64,000 nt of DNA from the sequence record OP870147.1; one strand, given 5' to 3'. This DNA comes from Escherichia phage vB_Eco_F31. Within the stretch, counting starts at the first letter, position 1, and each line of letters begins with the position of its first letter. The notes below the pieces were generated by a model. That model was not told the DNA's origin and ran no database searches. It worked only from the letters and a program-made list of their open reading frames with translations. Made by a program: the position numbers and the translations under genes. Positions 1 to 43,671 of this stretch are shown in pieces.

Positions 1-131
1 TGAACCAAGCCATCAAAAACGCCTTTACTATTTACTTTGTATGTTACTTTGGGATTTTTACCTTCTTCGATAGCAGCTTTCTGTTCCGCAGATAATGTAA
101 CTTCAGTGATAAACTCCTGATATGTTTTCAT
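1..131 (-). CDS. internal protein-like, 3' end outside window (N-terminus MKTYQEFITEVTLSAEQK...)
   Basis: Manual translation of minus strand from ATG at 131; N-terminus matches T4 internal-protein capsid targeting sequence; ORF runs off left edge. Confidence 0.6.
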   Translation of the reverse strand, partial: MKTYQEFITEVTLSAEQKAAIEEGKNPKVTYKVNSKGVFDGLV

Positions 132-156
132 TTTGTTCCTATTGTTTTAATTTATG

Positions 157-471
157 TTATTCTTTAGGGAAGTTTTTAGAGTATGCATCATAAAGTTTAT
201 TACCAATACGACGGAAGACTTTAGCTGCAAAACGGTTTTCAGGGTTTTTAATCATGATTTGCATCATGTAAGTTCCTGCATCCGAAAGAGCTTCTTCATA
301 GTACCCATTAATTTCTTTAAGAGTCCTACGTTTACCACCAGGACCATCAACAGTAATTTTCCATTTACCTGTAGAAGTGCGGCTCGGTGGCTCAACTTGT
401 TCAATCCAAATATAACCACCTTCAACGCGTTGGTTGGCGGATTCTGCAATAAATTCTTTATACGTTTTCAT
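157..471 (-). CDS. internal protein (CTS-bearing, MKTYKEFIAE...)
   Basis: ORF track 104 aa; N-terminal MKTYxEFIxE capsid-targeting motif as in T4 IPI/IPII/IPIII; early promoter upstream. Confidence 0.75.
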   Translation of the reverse strand: MKTYKEFIAESANQRVEGGYIWIEQVEPPSRTSTGKWKITVDGPGGKRRTLKEINGYYEEALSDAGTYMMQIMIKNPENRFAAKVFRRIGNKLYDAYSKNFPKE

Positions 472-502
472 TTTTTGTTTCCTTGTTTGTTTTGATAGAG
501 TA

Positions 503-532
503 ATTATACCATATTAATACTTAAGCGTAAAC
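503..532 (-). promoter_or_regulatory. early promoter (GTTTAC-N18-TATAAT, minus strand)
   Basis: T4 early-promoter pattern upstream of IP gene 157..471. Confidence 0.6.
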
Positions 533-535
533 AAT

Positions 536-796
536 TTAAGCTTTACCGCCAGAAATAATTCCGAAGTTGTTAAAATCGTATCCAATATCGTCAACATCCA
601 CTTTAGGACTTGCTACAACATAAGCAATTTCACTACGTTTTGCATAGGTGTTGATTTCTTTACCATCGCCACCTAAGAAAGAATACCCATTACGTTTTAA
701 TGAGCCAAAGTCTTCGGCATCACCAATGAAAGCTTTAACTTTAAATTTAGGACATTTGGCATCTGCTTCAATGATAAATTCTTGATACATTTTCAT
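536..796 (-). CDS. internal protein (CTS-bearing, MKMYQEFIIE...)
   Basis: ORF track 86 aa; CTS-like N-terminus. Confidence 0.7.
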   Translation of the reverse strand: MKMYQEFIIEADAKCPKFKVKAFIGDAEDFGSLKRNGYSFLGGDGKEINTYAKRSEIAYVVASPKVDVDDIGYDFNNFGIISGGKA

Positions 797-802
797 TTTT
801 CC

Positions 803-1216
803 TTAGTAAATTGATTTACCATAGTATTTGTACCAAGTCGGACGTTGAGCAATTTTTTCATCTAAGCGTGCTTGACTTATCGCAATGGACGCTTCGGACG
901 GGACATAATTATTACGAAATTCGGCAGGGATGTCGGAAATATCCTGGACAGTCGTGTCCTTGATTTTGAAACCACGTTTCAAACATTCGGCTATTAGCTC
1001 GATTTGACGTAAACGTAAAAATTCGAGTTTGTCGTAAAAGAATGTTACGTGACCTGTGCCTAAGATAAATGTTGGAGAGATTTTAAAATCTTTTACACGT
1101 TTACCATTCTGAACATGTTTACGGACTGCACCAAATACGCGTGGTAATTCACGATACTCAGCCATAAGATGTTGGTCGGACAGTTCAGAAACAAGTGTTA
1201 AATTGATACGAGTCAT
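803..1216 (-). CDS. denV: endonuclease V (pyrimidine dimer DNA glycosylase/AP lyase)
   Basis: Translation [12 protein letters not shown]...[16 protein letters not shown] matches T4 endonuclease V; start taken at ATG 1216 preceded by GGAGGA (ORF track begins at upstream TTG). Confidence 0.93.
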
Positions 1217-1220
1217 AATT

Positions 1221-1273
1221 TCCTCCAAGTAGTTGATAGATGTATAGTATCAAAGTCCTTGGAGGAAGTAAAC
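1221..1273 (-). promoter_or_regulatory. early promoter (GTTTAC-N18-TACTAT) nested in a 9-bp inverted repeat that pairs the denV Shine-Dalgarno
   Basis: Arms TCCTCCAAG (1221-1229) and CTTGGAGGA (1258-1266); -10 lies in the loop. Confidence 0.55.
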
Positions 1274-1274
1274 A

Positions 1275-1556
1275 CTATTTTTCTGAAGCGCCTGAAATAT
1301 ATTTTTCAAGACGTTGTTTCATTAGCGAGCCGTTCTTAGCGATTTCTTCTGGTTTATCGCACATACGCAACAAGGCTTCAAGCTTAGCGATATCGCTGGT
1401 ACGTTCAAATTTGCGAGTATCTATCTTACTAGCAAGTTCAGAAATACGTGCTAATAGACTTTCGGCTTCAACCAAAGCTGCACCTAGCTTAGTTGCAAAT
1501 GTGTCAGTAGCTTCGTTAAGAATAGATTCTGATAAAAATTCACTATATGTTTTCAT
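1275..1556 (-). CDS. internal protein (CTS-bearing, [10 protein letters not shown]...)
   Basis: ORF track frame; start at internal ATG giving MKTY N-terminus; ATGA overlap with lysozyme stop. Confidence 0.7.
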
Positions 1557-2041
1557 ATATACGCTTTCCAAGTTCCTGTTTTAAATGTTGAGATTACGCG
1601 TTTCGCGCGATTAGGTGTCTGACGATACCATTTAGATTGGGCTAGATTTACTGCCGCTTCATCCCAACGTTTCTGTTGAAGCATACGAAGAGAATTAGTA
1701 AAACCGGCGACGCCTGATACACCCATTTGGAAGACCATATTGACCAATGCACACCGACGAACTGCATCTAAAGAATCATATACCGGTTTAAGTTTAGCAT
1801 TACCCAAGATTCCGCGGACGGCTTTATCAACGTCTTCATTAAATAGCTTTTCAGCCTCATCAAGGGTAATTGTACCGTTGCATTTACGTCCGATCATTCT
1901 GTCAAGTTCAGCTTTAGCTACGGCTAAAGACGGATTCTTTGTTACTAAATGGCCAATGCCAATCGTCCAAAAACCTTCAGTGTCTTTGTATAAAGTCAGT
2001 CTAAGACCTTCGTCATTACGAAGCATTTCAAATATATTCAT
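1553..2041 (-). CDS. e: lysozyme (endolysin)
   Basis: [15 protein letters not shown]...[12 protein letters not shown]... near-identical in pattern to T4 lysozyme; start at ATG 2041 (track starts at upstream GTG). Confidence 0.95.
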
Positions 2042-2043
2042 AA

Positions 2044-2067
2044 TACCTCCCACGTTTATAGGAGGTA
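2044..2067 (-). promoter_or_regulatory. gene e regulatory hairpin: SD-sequestering 7-bp inverted repeat with late-promoter-like TATAAACG in the loop
   Basis: Arms TACCTCC (2044-2050) and GGAGGTA (2061-2067); same architecture as the known T4 gene e control. Confidence 0.55.
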
Positions 2068-2760: not shown

Positions 2761-3248
2761 CTCAAATTCCTGCATTCGGTAATAAAACGTTCAACTTCAT
2801 TATTCTTGGCCTTTATCTTGTCTTTACGTTCCTGTAAACTACTTTTAACAAGATTAATAATGATGCCTACAGTACCGCCGCCAATGATGCCGCCAACAAC
2901 ACTTATGATAATAGATGCTAATAAGATAGCAATAATATCAACAAAACCGAAAGAACTCACCTTAGTACTAAAAAACCATACCGACGGTACAAATATAATC
3001 CATCCTGTTATCCATTGGCACTTATTGAAAAACTTTTCAAGCTCAGCTTGAGTTGTTCGTATTACTTCATCGATAGGTTGATATCCATTAATGTATCTGT
3101 TCACGATAATACCTGCTGGCTGGTCGATTTTAAATTCTTGGCAAATATGTTTCACTAAGTAGGATGGACATCCTGTCCAATCTACTGAATAGTACGAAAT
3201 ACCTTCATTGCCGTCGTCAATATTAGACCAATATGTTTTGTTAATCAT
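2757..3248 (-). CDS. small membrane protein, FIxECR-tail family
   Basis: 163 aa, long hydrophobic segment, C-terminal ...ERFITECRNLR. Confidence 0.55.
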   Translation of the reverse strand: MINKTYWSNIDDGNEGISYYSVDWTGCPSYLVKHICQEFKIDQPAGIIVNRYINGYQPIDEVIRTTQAELEKFFNKCQWITGWIIFVPSVWFFSTKVSSFGFVDIIAILLASIIISVVGGIIGGGTVGIIINLVKSSLQERKDKIKAKNNEVERFITECRNLR

Positions 3249-3934
3249 TACCAGCCTTCCATAGGGAATTCCAGATAAACTTGGGCATTGACACGAATTT
3301 CATTGGTAATCTTTTTAACTCGGTCTGTATTACGAGATACACGTCCGAACCAACGCCATCCGTTACTAATTGCACGAGAACCAGTGTGCCATGTTTGCCA
3401 ATCAAACTGAAGAAGAGTACGATCTGGAGCTTCCCATTTCTCTAGTTCACCTTTTTCAATTTTTTCGAGGACTTCTTTGTGCCACTGGCGATAGATAAGT
3501 TCGCCATCAGGAATCTGACTGAACTCTGCAGTTCCTGTTGCAAAATGAGTAGGACACACGTCAGCGTTAACAAGACCAAGAATATGTTCAGAATGGTAAC
3601 GAGGGTTGTCATAGTCAGGTTGTCCTGCAGTAATAAAGTGTTGACCAACTGGAATATCAGGGCGAGGAACATCGTCATGGTGGTATCCAGGAATAGCAGG
3701 ATACCAACCAGGCATCAGCATATGGACTCGTGAATCAAATACAACATGTTGATTAGTCCAATCAATTGGGAGATTGGCAATAAAGCTACGAGTGATTGAG
3801 CCACCATTATCCCAAGCAAAACCCAAATCACAATTAAAGAACATTGGTTCATTTTTGATTCGGTCATTTTGTACGTTATGTGCAAAACTACCAACTGCAC
3901 GAGCTTGACTATTAAAAGTTTTAGAACTATTCAT
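3248..3934 (-). CDS. hypothetical protein
   Basis: 228 aa ORF, ATG with GAGGAAA SD; His/Asp-rich segment GYHHDD; function not assignable by eye. Confidence 0.55.
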   Translation of the reverse strand: MNSSKTFNSQARAVGSFAHNVQNDRIKNEPMFFNCDLGFAWDNGGSITRSFIANLPIDWTNQHVVFDSRVHMLMPGWYPAIPGYHHDDVPRPDIPVGQHFITAGQPDYDNPRYHSEHILGLVNADVCPTHFATGTAEFSQIPDGELIYRQWHKEVLEKIEKGELEKWEAPDRTLLQFDWQTWHTGSRAISNGWRWFGRVSRNTDRVKKITNEIRVNAQVYLEFPMEGW

Positions 3935-4241: not shown

Positions 4242-4299
4242 AATATTCTCCTCATGTTTTAATAGGACTACTATAATATAGCCCTATCAGTTTGTACAC

Positions 4300-4500
4300 T
4301 TATTTTGACATTTCTTCGATGTCACGACGATACCCATCACGAACTTCACGAAGAGCTTCAAGGCCACACATAGGCTCGATACCAGTAATGTGAACTTGAT
4401 TAATCTGATACTCTACATCTTCTAACTGAGCGAAAACATAACGACGTTCTGCTGCACAACCAGGTTTAGCTTTACCGAAACGTTTATTCAAAGTAGTCAT
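4300..4500 (-). CDS. hypothetical protein
   Basis: ORF track 4300..4518; ATG 4500 preferred because preceded by GGAG SD and downstream of the early promoter. Confidence 0.45.
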   Translation of the reverse strand: MTTLNKRFGKAKPGCAAERRYVFAQLEDVEYQINQVHITGIEPMCGLEALREVRDGYRRDIEEMSK

Positions 4501-4538
4501 TTTTATATCTCCATTCACTCATTTGTTTTGATAGGTCT

Positions 4539-4568
4539 ATAGTATCAACAACTACAGACCTTGTAAAC
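4539..4568 (-). promoter_or_regulatory. early promoter (GTTTAC-N18-TACTAT) with flanking inverted repeat AGGTCT/AGACCT
   Basis: T4 early-promoter pattern upstream of 4300..4500. Confidence 0.5.
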
Positions 4569-9612: not shown

Positions 9613-10077
9613 TTATTTAATTTGTTTAGCAGACCAGATACGGTCTTTAATAAGTTTTTGGATATCTTCAACATACTCAAGGCTATGAGCGTGAGGATTA
9701 TCTTTGAAGCTATGTGCTCGTGCCAGTTTCTGTCCTTCTGTTTTGATTACTAAAAGCTCTTTAAGAATTGCTTCATACTTAGAAATAATTCCTTTGGCGA
9801 TATTTTTTTCTTGAGCTGCTTTAGGGTCCGCTTTTGGCGCAGGTGCTTTACCTGTAGCTTTCTGGAACAATTCACCTGATGCAGCTAGGCTTTTAAAAAC
9901 TCGGCTAACAGTATTAGCATTAGTAAAACCTTCGGCTTTAAAATCTCTAATAAAACGGAAACGTTCTTCATCAGAGGCGTCTTTGTAAGAATATTTACCT
10001 GCTTGAATTGCTGCAATCGCAGCGGCTTTTACATCTGAACTAGATTGTTCAGTCAAAAATTCAGCGTATGATTTCAT
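9613..10077 (-). CDS. internal protein-like (CTS-bearing, MKSYAEFLTE...)
   Basis: 154 aa; N-terminus matches MKxYxEFxxE capsid-targeting pattern; Lys/Ala-rich. Confidence 0.55.
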   Translation of the reverse strand: MKSYAEFLTEQSSSDVKAAAIAAIQAGKYSYKDASDEERFRFIRDFKAEGFTNANTVSRVFKSLAASGELFQKATGKAPAPKADPKAAQEKNIAKGIISKYEAILKELLVIKTEGQKLARAHSFKDNPHAHSLEYVEDIQKLIKDRIWSAKQIK

Positions 10078-10121: not shown

Positions 10122-10149
10122 CAAAAAGCCCCAACCTTTCGGAAGGGGC
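10122..10149 (-). terminator. rho-independent terminator (GCCCC...GGGGC + U5) closing the tRNA/small-RNA transcription unit
   Basis: Stem-loop plus CTTTTTGGCATAA on the minus strand. Confidence 0.5.
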
Positions 10150-10155
10150 TATGCC

Positions 10156-10340
10156 TTGCGGCAACCTTGTCGGGGTTCCACCTGCTAAGGCAAGTGTTTG
10201 TACGAAACGCCGGGATTTGAACCCGGTTATTAAGCAGTTGACGCTACTCAATATTTTTAAAAGGCCATATCTCGACCATATCCGAACGTTCCGTCAAAAA
10301 CGCTACTCGGCTTACGGCAAAGATATTTCCTCGAATCGAT
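10156..10340 (-). ncRNA. candidate small stable RNA downstream of tRNA-Arg (cf. T4 species 1/2 RNAs); tRNA-like T-arm CCGGG-TTCAAAT-CCCGG
   Basis: Non-coding stretch between tRNA cluster and a rho-independent terminator; T-arm-like hairpin at about 10211-10227; no full cloverleaf could be drawn. Confidence 0.3.
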
Positions 10341-10637
10341 AATTCGGTGCGCCGTTTCTGCTGTGATGTAAGGGGATATTAAAAAATCGTAAAGATTTAT
10401 TAAGACCAGTCCTTACTCAGGGAACATCAGTCCGACGACTTACCGGTAGCGACCCGGCTTCTTATTTTGGCATATCATCAATTTGCTCTCGACGCCGACG
10501 CCATAGATTAATAGCTTCATTAACACATTCGGCGTTTGGTATATGACGGCAATAATATAATGATTCGCGTTTCTGGAACCGATGTTGCAACGGGATTTCG
10601 TTTAAAAGGTCTTTACGGTCAAAGTATTCAAAACTAG

Positions 10638-10823: not shown

Positions 10824-10900
<77 letters not shown>

Positions 10901-10903
10901 GAT

Positions 10904-10978
10904 TGGTGACCCTGGCTGGTTTCGATCCAGCTACCTATCAGTTATGAGCTGACAGCTCTCCCATTGAGCTACAGGGCC
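10904..10978 (-). tRNA. tRNA with CAU anticodon (Ile by lysidine modification, or Met), CCA encoded
   Basis: Manual cloverleaf: acceptor GGCCCTG/CAGGGTC, D-arm GCTC...GAGC, anticodon loop CTCATAA, T-arm GCTGG-ATCGAAA-CCAGC. Confidence 0.75.
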
Positions 10979-12484: not shown

Positions 12485-12772
12485 TTACAGAAGAGTTTTT
12501 GCAATAATTTTAAGCTGAGCTACAGAAATATGCTTAGCTTTAAACAGTGCAGTCTCTTCAGCCGGAGAGATAACAATAGTAGCGCCATCTTTCTTAGCGG
12601 ACCACCCATCCCCTAAGTAAACAGTACCTTTTACTTCTTCGCCGTCAACCAGACTAATCATTGGTTTACCCTCGCGTCCTTTATTTGCTTTAATAACTTC
12701 GGAAGTAAGGGTTGCTTCGGTCAGAGTAGAAACGTTAGCAAAAGGTGATATAAATTCTTTATAGGATTTCAT
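12485..12772 (-). CDS. internal protein-like (MKSYKEFIS...)
   Basis: 95 aa; CTS-like N-terminus; sits where ipI lies in T4 (upstream of 57B). Confidence 0.55.
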   Translation of the reverse strand: MKSYKEFISPFANVSTLTEATLTSEVIKANKGREGKPMISLVDGEEVKGTVYLGDGWSAKKDGATIVISPAEETALFKAKHISVAQLKIIAKTLL

Positions 12773-39951: not shown

Positions 39952-41523
39952 ATGAAATTTAATATCTTAAGTTTGTTTGCTCCATGGGCAAAAATGGACG
40001 AACGTGATTACAAAGACCAAGAAAAAGAAAATTTAGAATCTATCACCACACCAAAATTAGACGATGGTGCTAAAGAATACGAAGTATCTGAAAATGAAGC
40101 ACAGCAAACATATAATGCTATGTTTCAGAGAATGTTCGGTAGTCAAGAACCAGGGCTCAAATCAACCCGTGAATTAATCGATACGTATCGAAATTTGATG
40201 ACGAACTATGAAGTGGATAATGCAGTCTCTGAAATAGTTTCTGATGCTATCGTATATGAAGATGATACAGAAGTCGTTTCTATAAATTTAGACAACACAA
40301 AATTTAGTCCAAATATAAAATCAATGATGTTGGATGAATTTAACGAAGTGTTGAATCATTTATCTTTCCAACGTAAAGGTTCAGACCATTTTAGACGTTG
40401 GTATGTAGATTCTCGAATTTTCTTCCATAAAATTATTGACCCTAAACGCCCTAAAGAAGGTATTAAAGAGCTTCGTCGTTTAGACCCACGTCAAGTTCAA
40501 TATGTCCGTGAAGTTATTACAACCACTGAAGCCGGTGTTAAAATAGTCAAGGGTTATAAAGAATATTTCATTTATGACACATCACACGAATCTTATGCTT
40601 GTGATGGCCGCATATATGAAGCTGGCACAAAAATAAAAATCCCTAAAGCCGCGATTGTTTATGCCCATTCTGGTTTAGTTGATTGTTGTGGTAAAAATAT
40701 CATCGGTTATTTGCATCGGGCTATTAAGCCAGCGAACCAATTAAAACTTCTTGAAGATGCCGTCGTAATTTATCGCATTACTCGTGCTCCCGATCGTCGT
40801 GTATGGTACGTTGATACAGGTAATATGCCTTCAAGAAAAGCAGCAGAACATATGCAGCATGTTATGAATACGATGAAAAACCGTATTGCATATGATGCTA
40901 CTACAGGCAAGATTAAAAACCAGCAGCATATTATGTCGATGACCGAAGATTATTGGTTACAACGACGTGATGGTAAAGCAGTAACAGAAGTTGACACATT
41001 ACCAGGTGCAGATAATACTGGAAATATGGAAGATGTACGTTGGTTCCGTAATGCGCTTTATATGGCTTTACGTATTCCTATTACCCGTATTCCAAGTGAC
41101 CAAGGTGGTATACAGTTTGATGCTGGTACTTCTATTACACGAGATGAATTGTCGTTTGGTAAATTTATTCGTGAGCTGCAACATAAATTTGAAGAGATAT
41201 TCCTAGACCCGCTTAAAACTAATTTAATTCTTAAAGGAATTATTACAGAAGATGAGTGGAATGATGAAATAAATAATATTAAGATAAAATTTCATCGGGA
41301 TAGTTATTTCTCGGAATTAAAGGATGCTGAGATTCTGGAGCGTCGCATTAATATGCTTCAGATGGCCGAACCATTTATTGGTAAATATATTTCTCACAGA
41401 ACAGCTATGAAAGATATTCTTCAGATGTCTGATGAGGAAATTGAACAAGAGGCTAAGCAAATTGAAGAAGAGTCGAAAGAGGCTCGTTTCCAAGACCCCG
41501 ACCAAGAACAAGAGGATTTTTAA
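39952..41523 (+). CDS. 20: portal vertex protein
   Basis: 523 aa; synteny. Confidence 0.95.
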
Positions 41524-41759
41524 TGGACGATTTAATTCAAGCTATTAAATCAAACGACCTCGTTGCTACTCGAAAGTTTTTTGAAAGTGCAATGGCAGAA
41601 AAAGCGGTTCGTTTGATTGAAGCACGCAAAGCAGAAATCGCTTCTCAATTTTTGATTGAAGGCGAAGAACCTGAAGAAGAAAAGAAAGCTAAAGCTTCGG
41701 AAGACGACGCTGATGAAGGCGATGACGACGAAGACGAAGATGATGAGGACGATGAATAA
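41523..41759 (+). CDS. 67: prohead core protein gp67
   Basis: 78 aa with poly-acidic C-terminus. Confidence 0.85.
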
Positions 41760-42184
41760 TGTATCTTATCCCTGAATCTTATGAATTGGTACTCGAAAAT
41801 GTCGAAGCACTTATTCCTGAAGCACAGGGCCGAATCGATGCATTGTCTTCTGCTCTCGATATTGACGATATAAATACTATTATCGAGAACATGCTTGAAA
41901 CTGAAACGGATTTAGCTGTTGCAATGGCTTCCATTATTAATGAAGAACAGTTAAATGAGTTTATCGTTAAACATGTTTCTTCTCGTGGTGAAGTCACCCG
42001 CACTAAAGACCGTAAAACTCGTGAACGTAACGCGTTCCAAACCACTGGTCTTTCTAAAGCAAAACGTAGACAAATCGCTCGTAAGGTCGTTAAAGCTAAA
42101 AAAGCTAACCCTTCAGGCCAAGTTAAAGGCTTGCGTAAGCGTAAAAAAGCTCTTAAACGTCGTAAAGCATTAGGATTAAGCTAA
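41759..42184 (+). CDS. 68: prohead core protein gp68
   Basis: 141 aa, same length as T4 gp68. Confidence 0.85.
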
Positions 42185-42825
42185 TGAATAAACCCGAGTT
42201 ACTTATTGAAACTTGGGGTCAACCCGGTGAGATTATTGATGGCGTTCCAATGTTGGAATCTCATGATGGAAAAGATTCTGGCTTAAAACCAGGGCTTTAT
42301 ATAGAAGGTATTTTTCTTCAGGCAGAGGTTGTTAACCGAAATAAACGTTTATATCCTAAACGCGTTTTGGAAAAAGCAGTAAGTGACTATATTAAAGAAC
42401 AAGTCGCAACCAAACAAGCCCTTGGAGAATTAAACCATCCACCTCGTGCAAATGTTGACCCTATGCAAGCCGCTATCATTATTGAAGATATGTGGTGGAA
42501 AGGAAACGATGTATATGGACGTGCTAGAATTATTGAAGGCGACCATGGTCCCGGCGATAAATTAGCTGCTAATATACGAGCTGGTTGGATTCCAGGTGTT
42601 TCCTCTCGTGGTCTTGGTTCTTTAACCGACACCAATAAAGGGTACCGTATCGTGAACGAAGGATTTAAATTAACCGTCGGCGTAGATGCCGTATGGGGAC
42701 CTTCTGCTCCAGATGCTTGGGTTACTCCTAAACAAATATCAGAATCAGAAAATTCGGTGGAAACCACCAAAAACAGTGCTGATGAAGCATTTAAAGCTCT
42801 CGCAGAGAGTTTAAAAGCATTATAA
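42184..42825 (+). CDS. 21: prohead core protease
   Basis: 213 aa; synteny 68-21-22-23. Confidence 0.92.
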   Translation: MNKPELLIETWGQPGEIIDGVPMLESHDGKDSGLKPGLYIEGIFLQAEVVNRNKRLYPKRVLEKAVSDYIKEQVATKQALGELNHPPRANVDPMQAAIIIEDMWWKGNDVYGRARIIEGDHGPGDKLAANIRAGWIPGVSSRGLGSLTDTNKGYRIVNEGFKLTVGVDAVWGPSAPDAWVTPKQISESENSVETTKNSADEAFKALAESLKAL

Positions 42826-42858: not shown

Positions 42859-43671
42859 ATGATCAAAGAACAACTTTTGAAAGAAGCTCAGAACATCGAG
42901 ACTTCAGTTGCTCTTAATAGTGTTTTCGAATCAGTAGAACTGTCTCCGGACGTTAAAGCTAATTTCAGCACTGTATTCGAAGCCACCGTTAAGCAGGAAG
43001 CAGTCAAACTGGCTGAATCTCATATCAAAGCCATCGCCGAAAAGGCCGAAGAAGAAGTTGAAAAGGCCAAAGAAGATGCTGAAGAGAAAGCTGATAAAAA
43101 ATTGGCTGAACAAGCTTCTAAATTCCTAGACCATCTTGCAAAAGAATGGCTCGCAGAAAACCAAATCGCAGTTGATAAAGGCATTAAAGCTGATTTGTTC
43201 GAATCCATGCTTGGTGGTCTGAAAGAACTGTTTGTTGAACATAACGTTGTTGTTCCAGAAGAATCTGTAGATGTTGTAGCAGAAATGGAAGAAGAGCTGG
43301 CCGAACATAAAGAAGAAACCGCTCGTTTGTTCGAAGAAGTTACCAAACGTGATGCATATATCAATTACGTTCAGCGTGAAACCGCTATTAATGAAAGCGT
43401 AAAAGACCTGACTGAATCTCAGAAAGAAAAAGTTATTGGCCTGGTTGAAGGTATGGATTATTCTGACGCATTTGGTACTAAGTTAACTGCTATTGTAGAA
43501 ATGGTTAAAGGTTCTACTAAAGAAGAAGCCGCTATTACCGAAAGTATAAATACAGTTGACAATGACGCTGCCGGTCTTAATTTTGTTGCCGAAGCAGTTG
43601 ACACTACCACAACTCAGGTAGAACAGAATTCTAATGTAAGTTTATATGCGAAAGTCGCATCTCGTTTCTAA
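42859..43671 (+). CDS. 22: prohead core scaffold protein
   Basis: 270 aa, acidic coiled-coil. Confidence 0.92.
   Translation: MIKEQLLKEAQNIETSVALNSVFESVELSPDVKANFSTVFEATVKQEAVKLAESHIKAIAEKAEEEVEKAKEDAEEKADKKLAEQASKFLDHLAKEWLAENQIAVDKGIKADLFESMLGGLKELFVEHNVVVPEESVDVVAEMEEELAEHKEETARLFEEVTKRDAYINYVQRETAINESVKDLTESQKEKVIGLVEGMDYSDAFGTKLTAIVEMVKGSTKEEAAITESINTVDNDAAGLNFVAEAVDTTTTQVEQNSNVSLYAKVASRF
43545..43552 (+). promoter_or_regulatory. late promoter TATAAATA inside gene 22 3' end, candidate P23
   Basis: Exact octamer about 137 nt upstream of gene 23 ATG. Confidence 0.45.

Follow-up and report, generated by a model that had tools for sequence, protein, structure and literature searches.

Tag-bearing internal-protein genes around denV of an RB69-like phage as candidate injected inhibitors of type IV restriction

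What is the role of a group of small open reading frames that surround denV in Escherichia phage vB_Eco_F31 and share their first ten residues? A sequence-only reading of a 64,000-nucleotide stretch of this genome (the window) had taken four of them for internal-protein (IP) genes of the T4 type and their products for candidate injected anti-defence effectors. Positions 1-2100 of the window matched 361 phage records with Mosigvirus genomes as the best matches, and full-length matches were obtained with vB_EcoM_NBG1 (98.9% identity) and RB69 (97.8%). Nucleotide identity of 98-99% to sequenced phages places the source of the window in Mosigvirus, among the RB69-like members of the T4 subfamily.

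The minus strand carries every gene of the denV/IP region, and the four IP reading frames at 1-131, 157-471, 536-796 and 1275-1556 are present both in the ORF list and in the sequence, all of them on this strand. The arrangement e, IP, denV, IP, IP, IP proposed earlier holds when the locus is read in the direction of transcription, where the order is nudE, e, IP, denV, IP, IP, IP, with vs.8 as the next gene in relatives; T4, for comparison, has e, ipIII, ipII, denV, vs.8. The upstream border of the locus is e (1553..2041, minus strand), which encodes a T4-type lysozyme (MNIFEML...), while denV (803..1216, minus strand), encoding endonuclease V, a pyrimidine-dimer glycosylase, is a conserved gene with IP cassettes around it; both were recognised from their ORFs and orthologue annotation. 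On comparison of the gene order with T4, RB69, SP18 and PSD9, the four genes were found to lie in one of the two variable Ip loci, of which one runs from e to vs.8 and the other from 57B to the tRNA genes. IP genes on both sides of denV proved to be usual among the relatives of T4 (SP18, PSD9 and IMG/VR loci), T4 itself being the exception: SP18 has the order e, denV, Ip10, IP, IP, vs.8 and PSD9 the order e, IPIII, denV, IP, IP, vs.8.

The shared N-terminus MK(T/M)Y.EF(I/L).E, on which the first identification was built, is indeed present in all four IP frames. Six-frame translation of the window gave 5 matches to the pattern MK[TSM]Y.EF[IL].E, all of them at minus-strand ORF starts, where residue frequencies predict 8e-6 and 300 shuffles produced none. 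For T4 IPIII, ten N-terminal residues are enough to bring the protein into the head (review of Black's work, PMC9026906), and mutagenesis of this protein assigned residues 4 and 7 to targeting and residues 8 and 10 to processing by gp21 (PMC9026906). All four frames start with MK(T/M)Y.EF and contain both targeting determinants, Tyr4 and Phe7; the gp21 signal, Ile or Leu at position 8 and Glu at position 10, is likewise found in each of them as FLSE, FIIE, FIAE and FITE. A logo of 68 tagged ORFs, drawn from 33 denV-anchored T4-like loci, showed M1, K2 and E6 to be invariant, Y4, F7, I/L8 and E10 to be near-invariant, and residues 5, 9, 11 and 12 to be variable.

Both partners that such a tag calls for are encoded by the same phage. 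A tblastn search with RB69 gp21 located gene 21, the prohead protease expected to cut the tags, at 42184..42825 on the plus strand (99.5% over 213 aa), and gene 22, for the scaffolding core protein thought to be bound by the tag, was located at 42859..43671 on the same strand (99-100% identity to RB69 gp22). Just upstream of genes 21 and 22 are gp67 (41523-41759) and gp68 (41759-42184), again at 99-100% to RB69 by tblastn. Identification of the four ORFs as T4-type internal-protein genes is thus supported by sequence on three grounds, namely the tag residues, the gp21 and core genes, and the position in one of the two classical Ip loci.

The gene adjoining e (1275..1556, minus strand; 93 aa) belongs to the RB69 ORF127c family, and its start ATG overlaps the e stop codon (ATGA), which suggests coupled translation. 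Behind the ten-residue tag the protein reads ...SILNE-ATD, with ILNE-A at residue 15 as a second possible gp21 site; in two relatives position 10 is Val and the LNE site is retained. Its predicted mature form is of ~9 kDa and pI 6.3. In PHROGs its hit is phrog_3499, 'internal head protein' (E 2e-46), and the body is found in 496 phage records, Tequatrovirus among them at at least 97% identity. Beyond denV lies the gene of the RB69 ORF125c family (536..796, minus strand; 86 aa), whose product begins MKMYQEFIIE-ADAK... (N-terminus MKMYQEFIIEADAK), with a predicted mature form of 8.2 kDa and pI 6.4; it matches phrog_2667, also 'internal head protein', at E 1e-20, and its body is found in 217 phage records. 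The RB69 orthologues of these two proteins carry the RefSeq name 'internal head protein'.

The gene at 157..471 (minus strand; 104 aa; RB69 ORF124c family) encodes Ip10. Its product, MKTYKEFIAE-SANQ... (N-terminus MKTYKEFIAESANQ; predicted mature form 10.8 kDa, pI 9.6), shares a 90%-identity cluster with 'Ip10 [Enterobacteria phage Pol]' (CAA84455) and shows 71-72% identity with SP18 Ip10, and it is the only one of the four with close identity to Ip10 of either phage; the body occurs in 189 phage records. Ip10 is reportedly among the additional Ip proteins named from the work on T-even polymorphism by Repoila et al. in 1994. The fourth gene, of the RB69 ORF123c family, is represented by its 5' part (1..131, minus strand; 43 codons), starting MKTYQEFITE-VTLS... 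(N-terminus MKTYQEFITEVTLS). It is complete in NBG1 (locus L002:2802-3131), where it encodes 109 aa and is 100% identical over the part present in the window; the body of this family is found in 90 phage records.

After a cut at Glu10 the predicted mature proteins would measure 8.2-10.8 kDa, two of them neutral (pI 6.3 and 6.4) and two basic (9.6 and 9.7). The computed net charge of the mature 1275-1556 and 536-796 proteins is zero, and mature Ip10, the ORF123c-type protein and a 154-aa protein described below have pI 9.6-9.7 and a net charge of +5 to +8. Measured against diverged homologues, dN/dS was 0.04-0.11 for 1275-1556, 0.16-0.28 for 536-796 and 0.22-0.32 for 157-471, and 0.09 for the fourth gene against a diverged homologue. 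The four ORFs are real genes under purifying selection.

Do the proteins have anything in common beyond the tag? The statement that their bodies are unrelated was borne out at the sequence level by BLAST and hhalign. With the first 11-12 residues removed, BLAST found no similarity of the bodies to each other or to T4 IPI, IPII and IPIII, and hhalign among 18 body families gave a best probability of 12%. The possibility that all bodies are simply close homologues of T4 IPII or IPIII, which had been named as an outcome that would undo the proposal, is not what these two methods showed; among the tag-bearing proteins of the window, mature-body homology to IPI*, IPII, IPIII or Bas37_0260 is seen only in a separate IPI orthologue at 12485-12772. 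The bodies are, however, not novel as the sequence-only reading held, one being Ip10 of Pol and two being annotated internal head proteins, and each occurring in 90-496 phages. As a feature of T4-type phage genomes, the IP locus is ordinary and has been described before.

Sequence searches with the bodies against Pfam, NCBIfam and PDB returned nothing above noise; for the 157-471 protein there were weak matches to CsgH and filamin (E 0.07-0.8). When the Ip10 body was searched exhaustively with HMMER, a single true relative cluster was recovered, and the further matches were rejected as summed weak matches to unrelated repeat proteins (FG-GAP, RTX, CBM, SdrD). The same body also matches, at 27% identity, a module present three times in P0081. 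The 157-471 and 1-131 proteins are both placed in phrog_3966, a family without assigned function, and tblastn aligned them at 33% over 76 aa (E 0.01) with the tag within the alignment; paralogy is not claimed, since no similarity is seen by BLAST or hhalign once the tag is removed. AlphaFold2 models of the 536-796 protein (mean pLDDT 46.4, 7-sequence alignment) and of the 157-471 protein (mean pLDDT 45.6, 4-sequence alignment) were unusable, their alignments being shallow because a word-indexed homologue search gave too few diverse relatives. With models at pLDDT of about 46, no feature of the bodies themselves indicates a target.

The window holds two additional tag-bearing genes which the first reading had missed. 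One is a 154-aa ORF (9613..10077, minus strand) located at a third site, with e.8 on one side and the tRNA genes on the other, and with the start MKSYAEFLTE-QSSS... and a predicted mature pI of 9.6; it falls in phrog_2280, a family without assigned function, and RB69 differs at this site in having another tag-bearing ORF (149c). The other (12485..12772, minus strand; 95 aa) is directly downstream of 57B and is an orthologue of T4 IPI (87% over 95 aa, E 6e-52, tblastn), with a 19-residue propeptide ending ...STLTE-ATLTSE. Among the 5' regions of the six genes, no DNA similarity was detected beyond the tag codons and the ribosome-binding site.

Considering the locus across relatives, for which 80 related loci were collected with denV as anchor, the number of tagged ORFs per locus is one to five in 33 T4-like IMG/VR loci, and these ORFs represent 17-18 unrelated body families. 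The 1275-1556 family illustrates, by its distribution, the mobility of the cassettes. In Tequatrovirus vB_Eco_EL a 98.8% identical body lies between e and denV with the same overlap of ATG and e stop, and in G9062 and Bas37 a 47-48% relative follows 57B, in the ipI locus. The clearest example of exchange is provided by two loci (L006 and L007) whose denV is 99% identical to that of the window, and in which an orthologue of T4 IPIII (92% identical) occupies exactly the slot of Ip10 in the window. The window, L006 and L007 do not differ in the 3' end of the gene before the slot, in the intergenic stretch with its promoter-like site or in the ribosome-binding site; identity to the window is 100% up to about codon 9 of the tag, where similarity collapses, and it resumes where the next IP gene has its ribosome-binding site and ATG. 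As identity ends at about tag codon 9 and resumes at the next IP start, the exchange points lie at tag-coding DNA, and the slot is occupied in some phages by Ip10 and in others by a protein with proven activity against a GmrSD enzyme. What the analysis adds are the two further tagged genes, the approximately 17 body families at the locus and the IPIII/Ip10 swap breakpoint at the tag codons.

Consensus matches to promoters were also recorded. An early-type sigma-70 promoter-like site precedes the Ip10 gene (503..531, minus strand; GTTTAC/TTTACG, 17 nt, TATAAT, with TG). It was the top match of the scan (10/12) and is 100% conserved in relatives that have a different cassette downstream. Sites of this kind (GTTTAC, 17-18 nt, TATAAT or TACTAT; consensus matches) are found before denV, the Ip10 gene and the IPI orthologue. 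The minus strand of the first 13 kb contains no exact T4 late promoter TATAAATA, and near-matches to it (AATAAATA; consensus only) precede e and the 9613-10077 ORF. Since there is no exact late promoter and an early-type one stands before Ip10, late expression, which packaging would require, is assumed from the precedent of T4.

From these observations we infer packaging, cleavage, injection and anti-restriction activity, with differing confidence. Each protein would be made with the ten-residue N-terminal capsid targeting sequence M-K-T-Y-x-E-F-(I/L)-x-E, and during prohead assembly this tag would dock it on the gp22 scaffolding core. The protease gp21 would then cut after Glu10, and in the 1275-1556 protein possibly after Glu15 as well, leaving mature proteins of 8-11 kDa that would stay beside the DNA inside the head and be injected together with it. 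Inside the cell they would most likely bind and block nucleases that attack sugar-modified cytosine DNA (type IV enzymes of the GmrSD or McrBC kind), with one enzyme variant targeted per IP. The locus itself may diversify by swaps of whole cassettes, for which the conserved tag-coding DNA would serve as a recombination handle.

Taken as a whole, packaged and injected internal proteins of the T4 type that most likely block type IV restriction are the best explanation of the four genes, and we regard it as a likely one. That the four proteins are packaged in the virion is quite likely. The chance that they inhibit modification-dependent nucleases is somewhat better than even. A search of the searchable literature found no virion proteomics for any Mosigvirus or RB69-like phage.

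The original proposal of candidate injected anti-defence effectors is reasonable, and precedents for it have accumulated. T4 IPI* inhibits GmrSD (PMC3012670). The reading has been strengthened since that work by results on Ip2, Ip3, IPIII and a tagged Bas37 protein: T4 Ip1, Ip2 and Ip3 each block one distinct GmrSD variant, with no cross-protection (Silas et al., PMC12373910), T4 IPIII is required on ECOR17 (PMC9391042), and the tag-bearing Bas37_0260 blocks McrBC (preprint, bioRxiv 10.1101/2025.11.20.689424). The anti-defence idea for Ip-locus proteins is itself already published, Silas et al. having proposed that all of them act likewise (PMC12373910). Mosigvirus DNA contains arabinosylated 5-hydroxycytosine and is cut by BrxU, an enzyme of the GmrSD family (PMC13390438; PMC13326640), so selective pressure from such enzymes applies to the phage of the window too.

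Other readings of the same genes can be weighed against this one. Small ORFs that share an N-terminus may in principle be chance open frames or a coincidence, and small size alone would allow it; this reading is refuted by a motif found 5 times where 8e-6 are expected, by dN/dS of 0.04-0.32 and by conservation of the ORFs in 90-496 genomes, and its probability is negligible. The tag could also be a relic on proteins that act only after early de novo synthesis, for instance in host takeover, and are little packaged. Early-type promoter-like sites upstream of denV and of the Ip10 gene would fit such a role, as would the finding that T4 IPIII without its tag, when expressed in the host cytoplasm, still rescues infection (PMC9391042). 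It is nevertheless very improbable, for the targeting and processing residues are almost invariant in 68 ORFs with unrelated bodies, which points to continued selection on the tag, and the same tag is found on the T4 IP genes, whose products are packaged.

More plausible, yet still quite unlikely, is that the proteins are packaged with a mainly physical role, as basic counter-ions or spacers in DNA condensation, packaging or ejection, and are not inhibitors of defence. T4 internal proteins contact the phosphates of DNA through lysines (PMC3012670), and a basic character like that of T4 IPII and IPIII is predicted for mature Ip10, the ORF123c-type protein and the 154-aa protein; the 1275-1556 and 536-796 proteins, however, lack net charge. 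Unrelated bodies are moreover swapped between near-identical phages, which an arms race fits better, and each of the four IPs examined to date counters a specific restriction enzyme. It may also be that the proteins are packaged and injected anti-defence factors of which at least one is aimed at a defence other than type IV restriction of the GmrSD/McrBC kind, that is, at another nuclease family or a system acting on DNA entry. The target could then be a nuclease tuned to DNA with arabinosyl-5-hydroxycytosine, or a non-restriction system acting on the entering DNA. The bodies have no homology to any known inhibitor, and that of 1275-1556 is at least 97% identical across phages of the arabosylated type (Mosigvirus) and glucosylated phages (Tequatrovirus), which means that its target need not read one particular sugar. 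This family would be the best candidate for another target because its near-identical copies occur under different DNA sugars and it has relatives in both Ip loci. We consider such an outcome rather unlikely, given that the members of the class characterised to date, four in number, all act on type IV enzymes and that GmrSD diversity is large enough for many inhibitors (PMC12373910).

If, as in the preferred reading of inhibitors of type IV restriction, the proteins are injected, they would act before phage gene expression and decide the survival of the modified DNA in its first seconds in the cell, which makes them matter for host range and for the selection of therapeutic phages. Both the class and its principle are already established, and the window opens no new question. 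Its remaining value lies in four orphan proteins of this class plus a fifth at 9613-10077, all intact and among approximately 17 uncharacterised body families, and in the clear example of cassette exchange at tag-coding DNA that the window and its relatives provide.

Amongst known systems, Bas37_0260 of Tequatrovirus KarlGJung resembles the proteins of the window in its tag and similarly small size, but apart from the tag nothing homologous to it is encoded in the window; the product of the adjacent bas37_0261 is homologous (48%) to the 1275-1556 protein. The RB69 genes ORF123c, 124c, 125c and 127c are orthologues of the genes of the window, in the same order and with bodies 96-100% identical. 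In the RB69 reference the tag of 127c contains a pair of frameshifts (-1/+1), 124c is cut short by a +1 insertion and 123c has Ala in place of Glu10, whereas the versions of these three in the window are intact, as in most relatives. Between the 157-471 ORF and Ip10 of Pol or Shigella phage SP18 there is no difference of substance, and the SP18 copy also lies just after denV. At this locus T4 differs in having two IP genes, both upstream of denV, where the window has four, three of them downstream, and its IPs are basic, unlike two of the predicted mature proteins of the window. With T4 IPI, IPII and IPIII the proteins of the window nevertheless share the targeting and processing signal (Y4, F7, I/L8, E10), their small size, the neighbourhood between e and vs.8 around denV, and the same protease and core genes.

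Comparison of window positions 400-570 (minus strand) with positions 4647-4817 of L006 and L007, two relatives whose denV is 99% identical to that of the window, revealed a cassette swap between near-identical phages, in which Ip10 (157-471, minus strand) in the window corresponds to an IPIII orthologue in the relatives. The 5' breakpoint falls within the codons of the capsid targeting tag, and the 100 bases upstream of it are identical, promoter-like site included. Within the Ip10 body (window 160-441, minus strand), residues 8-70 share 27% identity with all three modules, each about 83 aa long and arranged in tandem, of P0081, a metagenomic RTX-repeat protein of 596 aa (E about 5e-6 for every pairing); weak matches to CsgH and filamin were obtained as well. 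These similarities may or may not reflect a shared small beta-rich fold.

A fifth tag-bearing ORF (9613-10077, minus strand; 154 aa) lies between e.8 and the tRNA genes, at a third site beyond the two classical Ip loci. Its product begins with MKSYAEFLTE followed by QSSS and would have a pI of 9.6 in its mature form; it matches phrog_2280, a family with no assigned function. The ORF is preceded on its 5' side by a terminator-like hairpin and AATAAATA. The upstream flank (10123-10400) is 97.5% identical to RB69; the tag-bearing ORF at the equivalent site of that phage, 149c (MKTYAEFLTEAAKL...), is another one and shows no similarity to the ORF of the window. The adjacent tRNA genes, Arg-tct and Met-cat (10824-10978, minus strand), number only two, against eight in the equivalent region of T4.

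RB69 ORFs 148c and 149c look like a single gene split by a frameshift, and several IP genes are damaged in the RB69 reference (L001, NC_004928) relative to the window and its close relative NBG1; the regions concerned are 4275-4556, 3200-3472 and 2802-3131 of L001 and 1929-2491 of L092. ORF127c carries a -1/+1 frameshift pair within the tag, the last 20 residues of ORF124c are replaced through a +1 insertion, and Glu10 has become Ala in ORF123c. These lesions are either mistakes in the sequence of 2003 or signs that genes which a laboratory stock can do without have decayed.

The lysozyme gene e and the first IP gene overlap at ATGA (1553-1556), where the start codon of the latter runs into the stop codon of the former. 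This overlap suggests translational coupling of the two genes, and it recurs in the Tequatrovirus vB_Eco_EL (L087, 2471-2474). A T4-lysozyme-like start of e, MNIFEML, is found at 2041 (2026-2053, minus strand); annotations differ on this point, RefSeq RB69 using an internal Met five codons downstream and the NBG1 record a start further upstream. The protein of the first IP gene (1275-1556) has a 48% homologue in phage Bas37, bas37_0261 (MZ501089, 5864-6121), which adjoins the McrBC inhibitor bas37_0260. bas37_0261 carries the annotation 'internal head protein ipI', but its homology is to the 1275-1556 protein and not to T4 IPI.

The IPI orthologue of the window itself is encoded at 12485-12772 (minus strand), immediately 3' of 57B; RB69 has an additional tag-bearing gene, ORF156c (MKTYQEFIAEATKAD...), between 57B and ipI, which is absent from the window. 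The IPI orthologue of the window shares 87% identity with T4 IPI, and the differences between the two lie mostly within the 19-residue propeptide.
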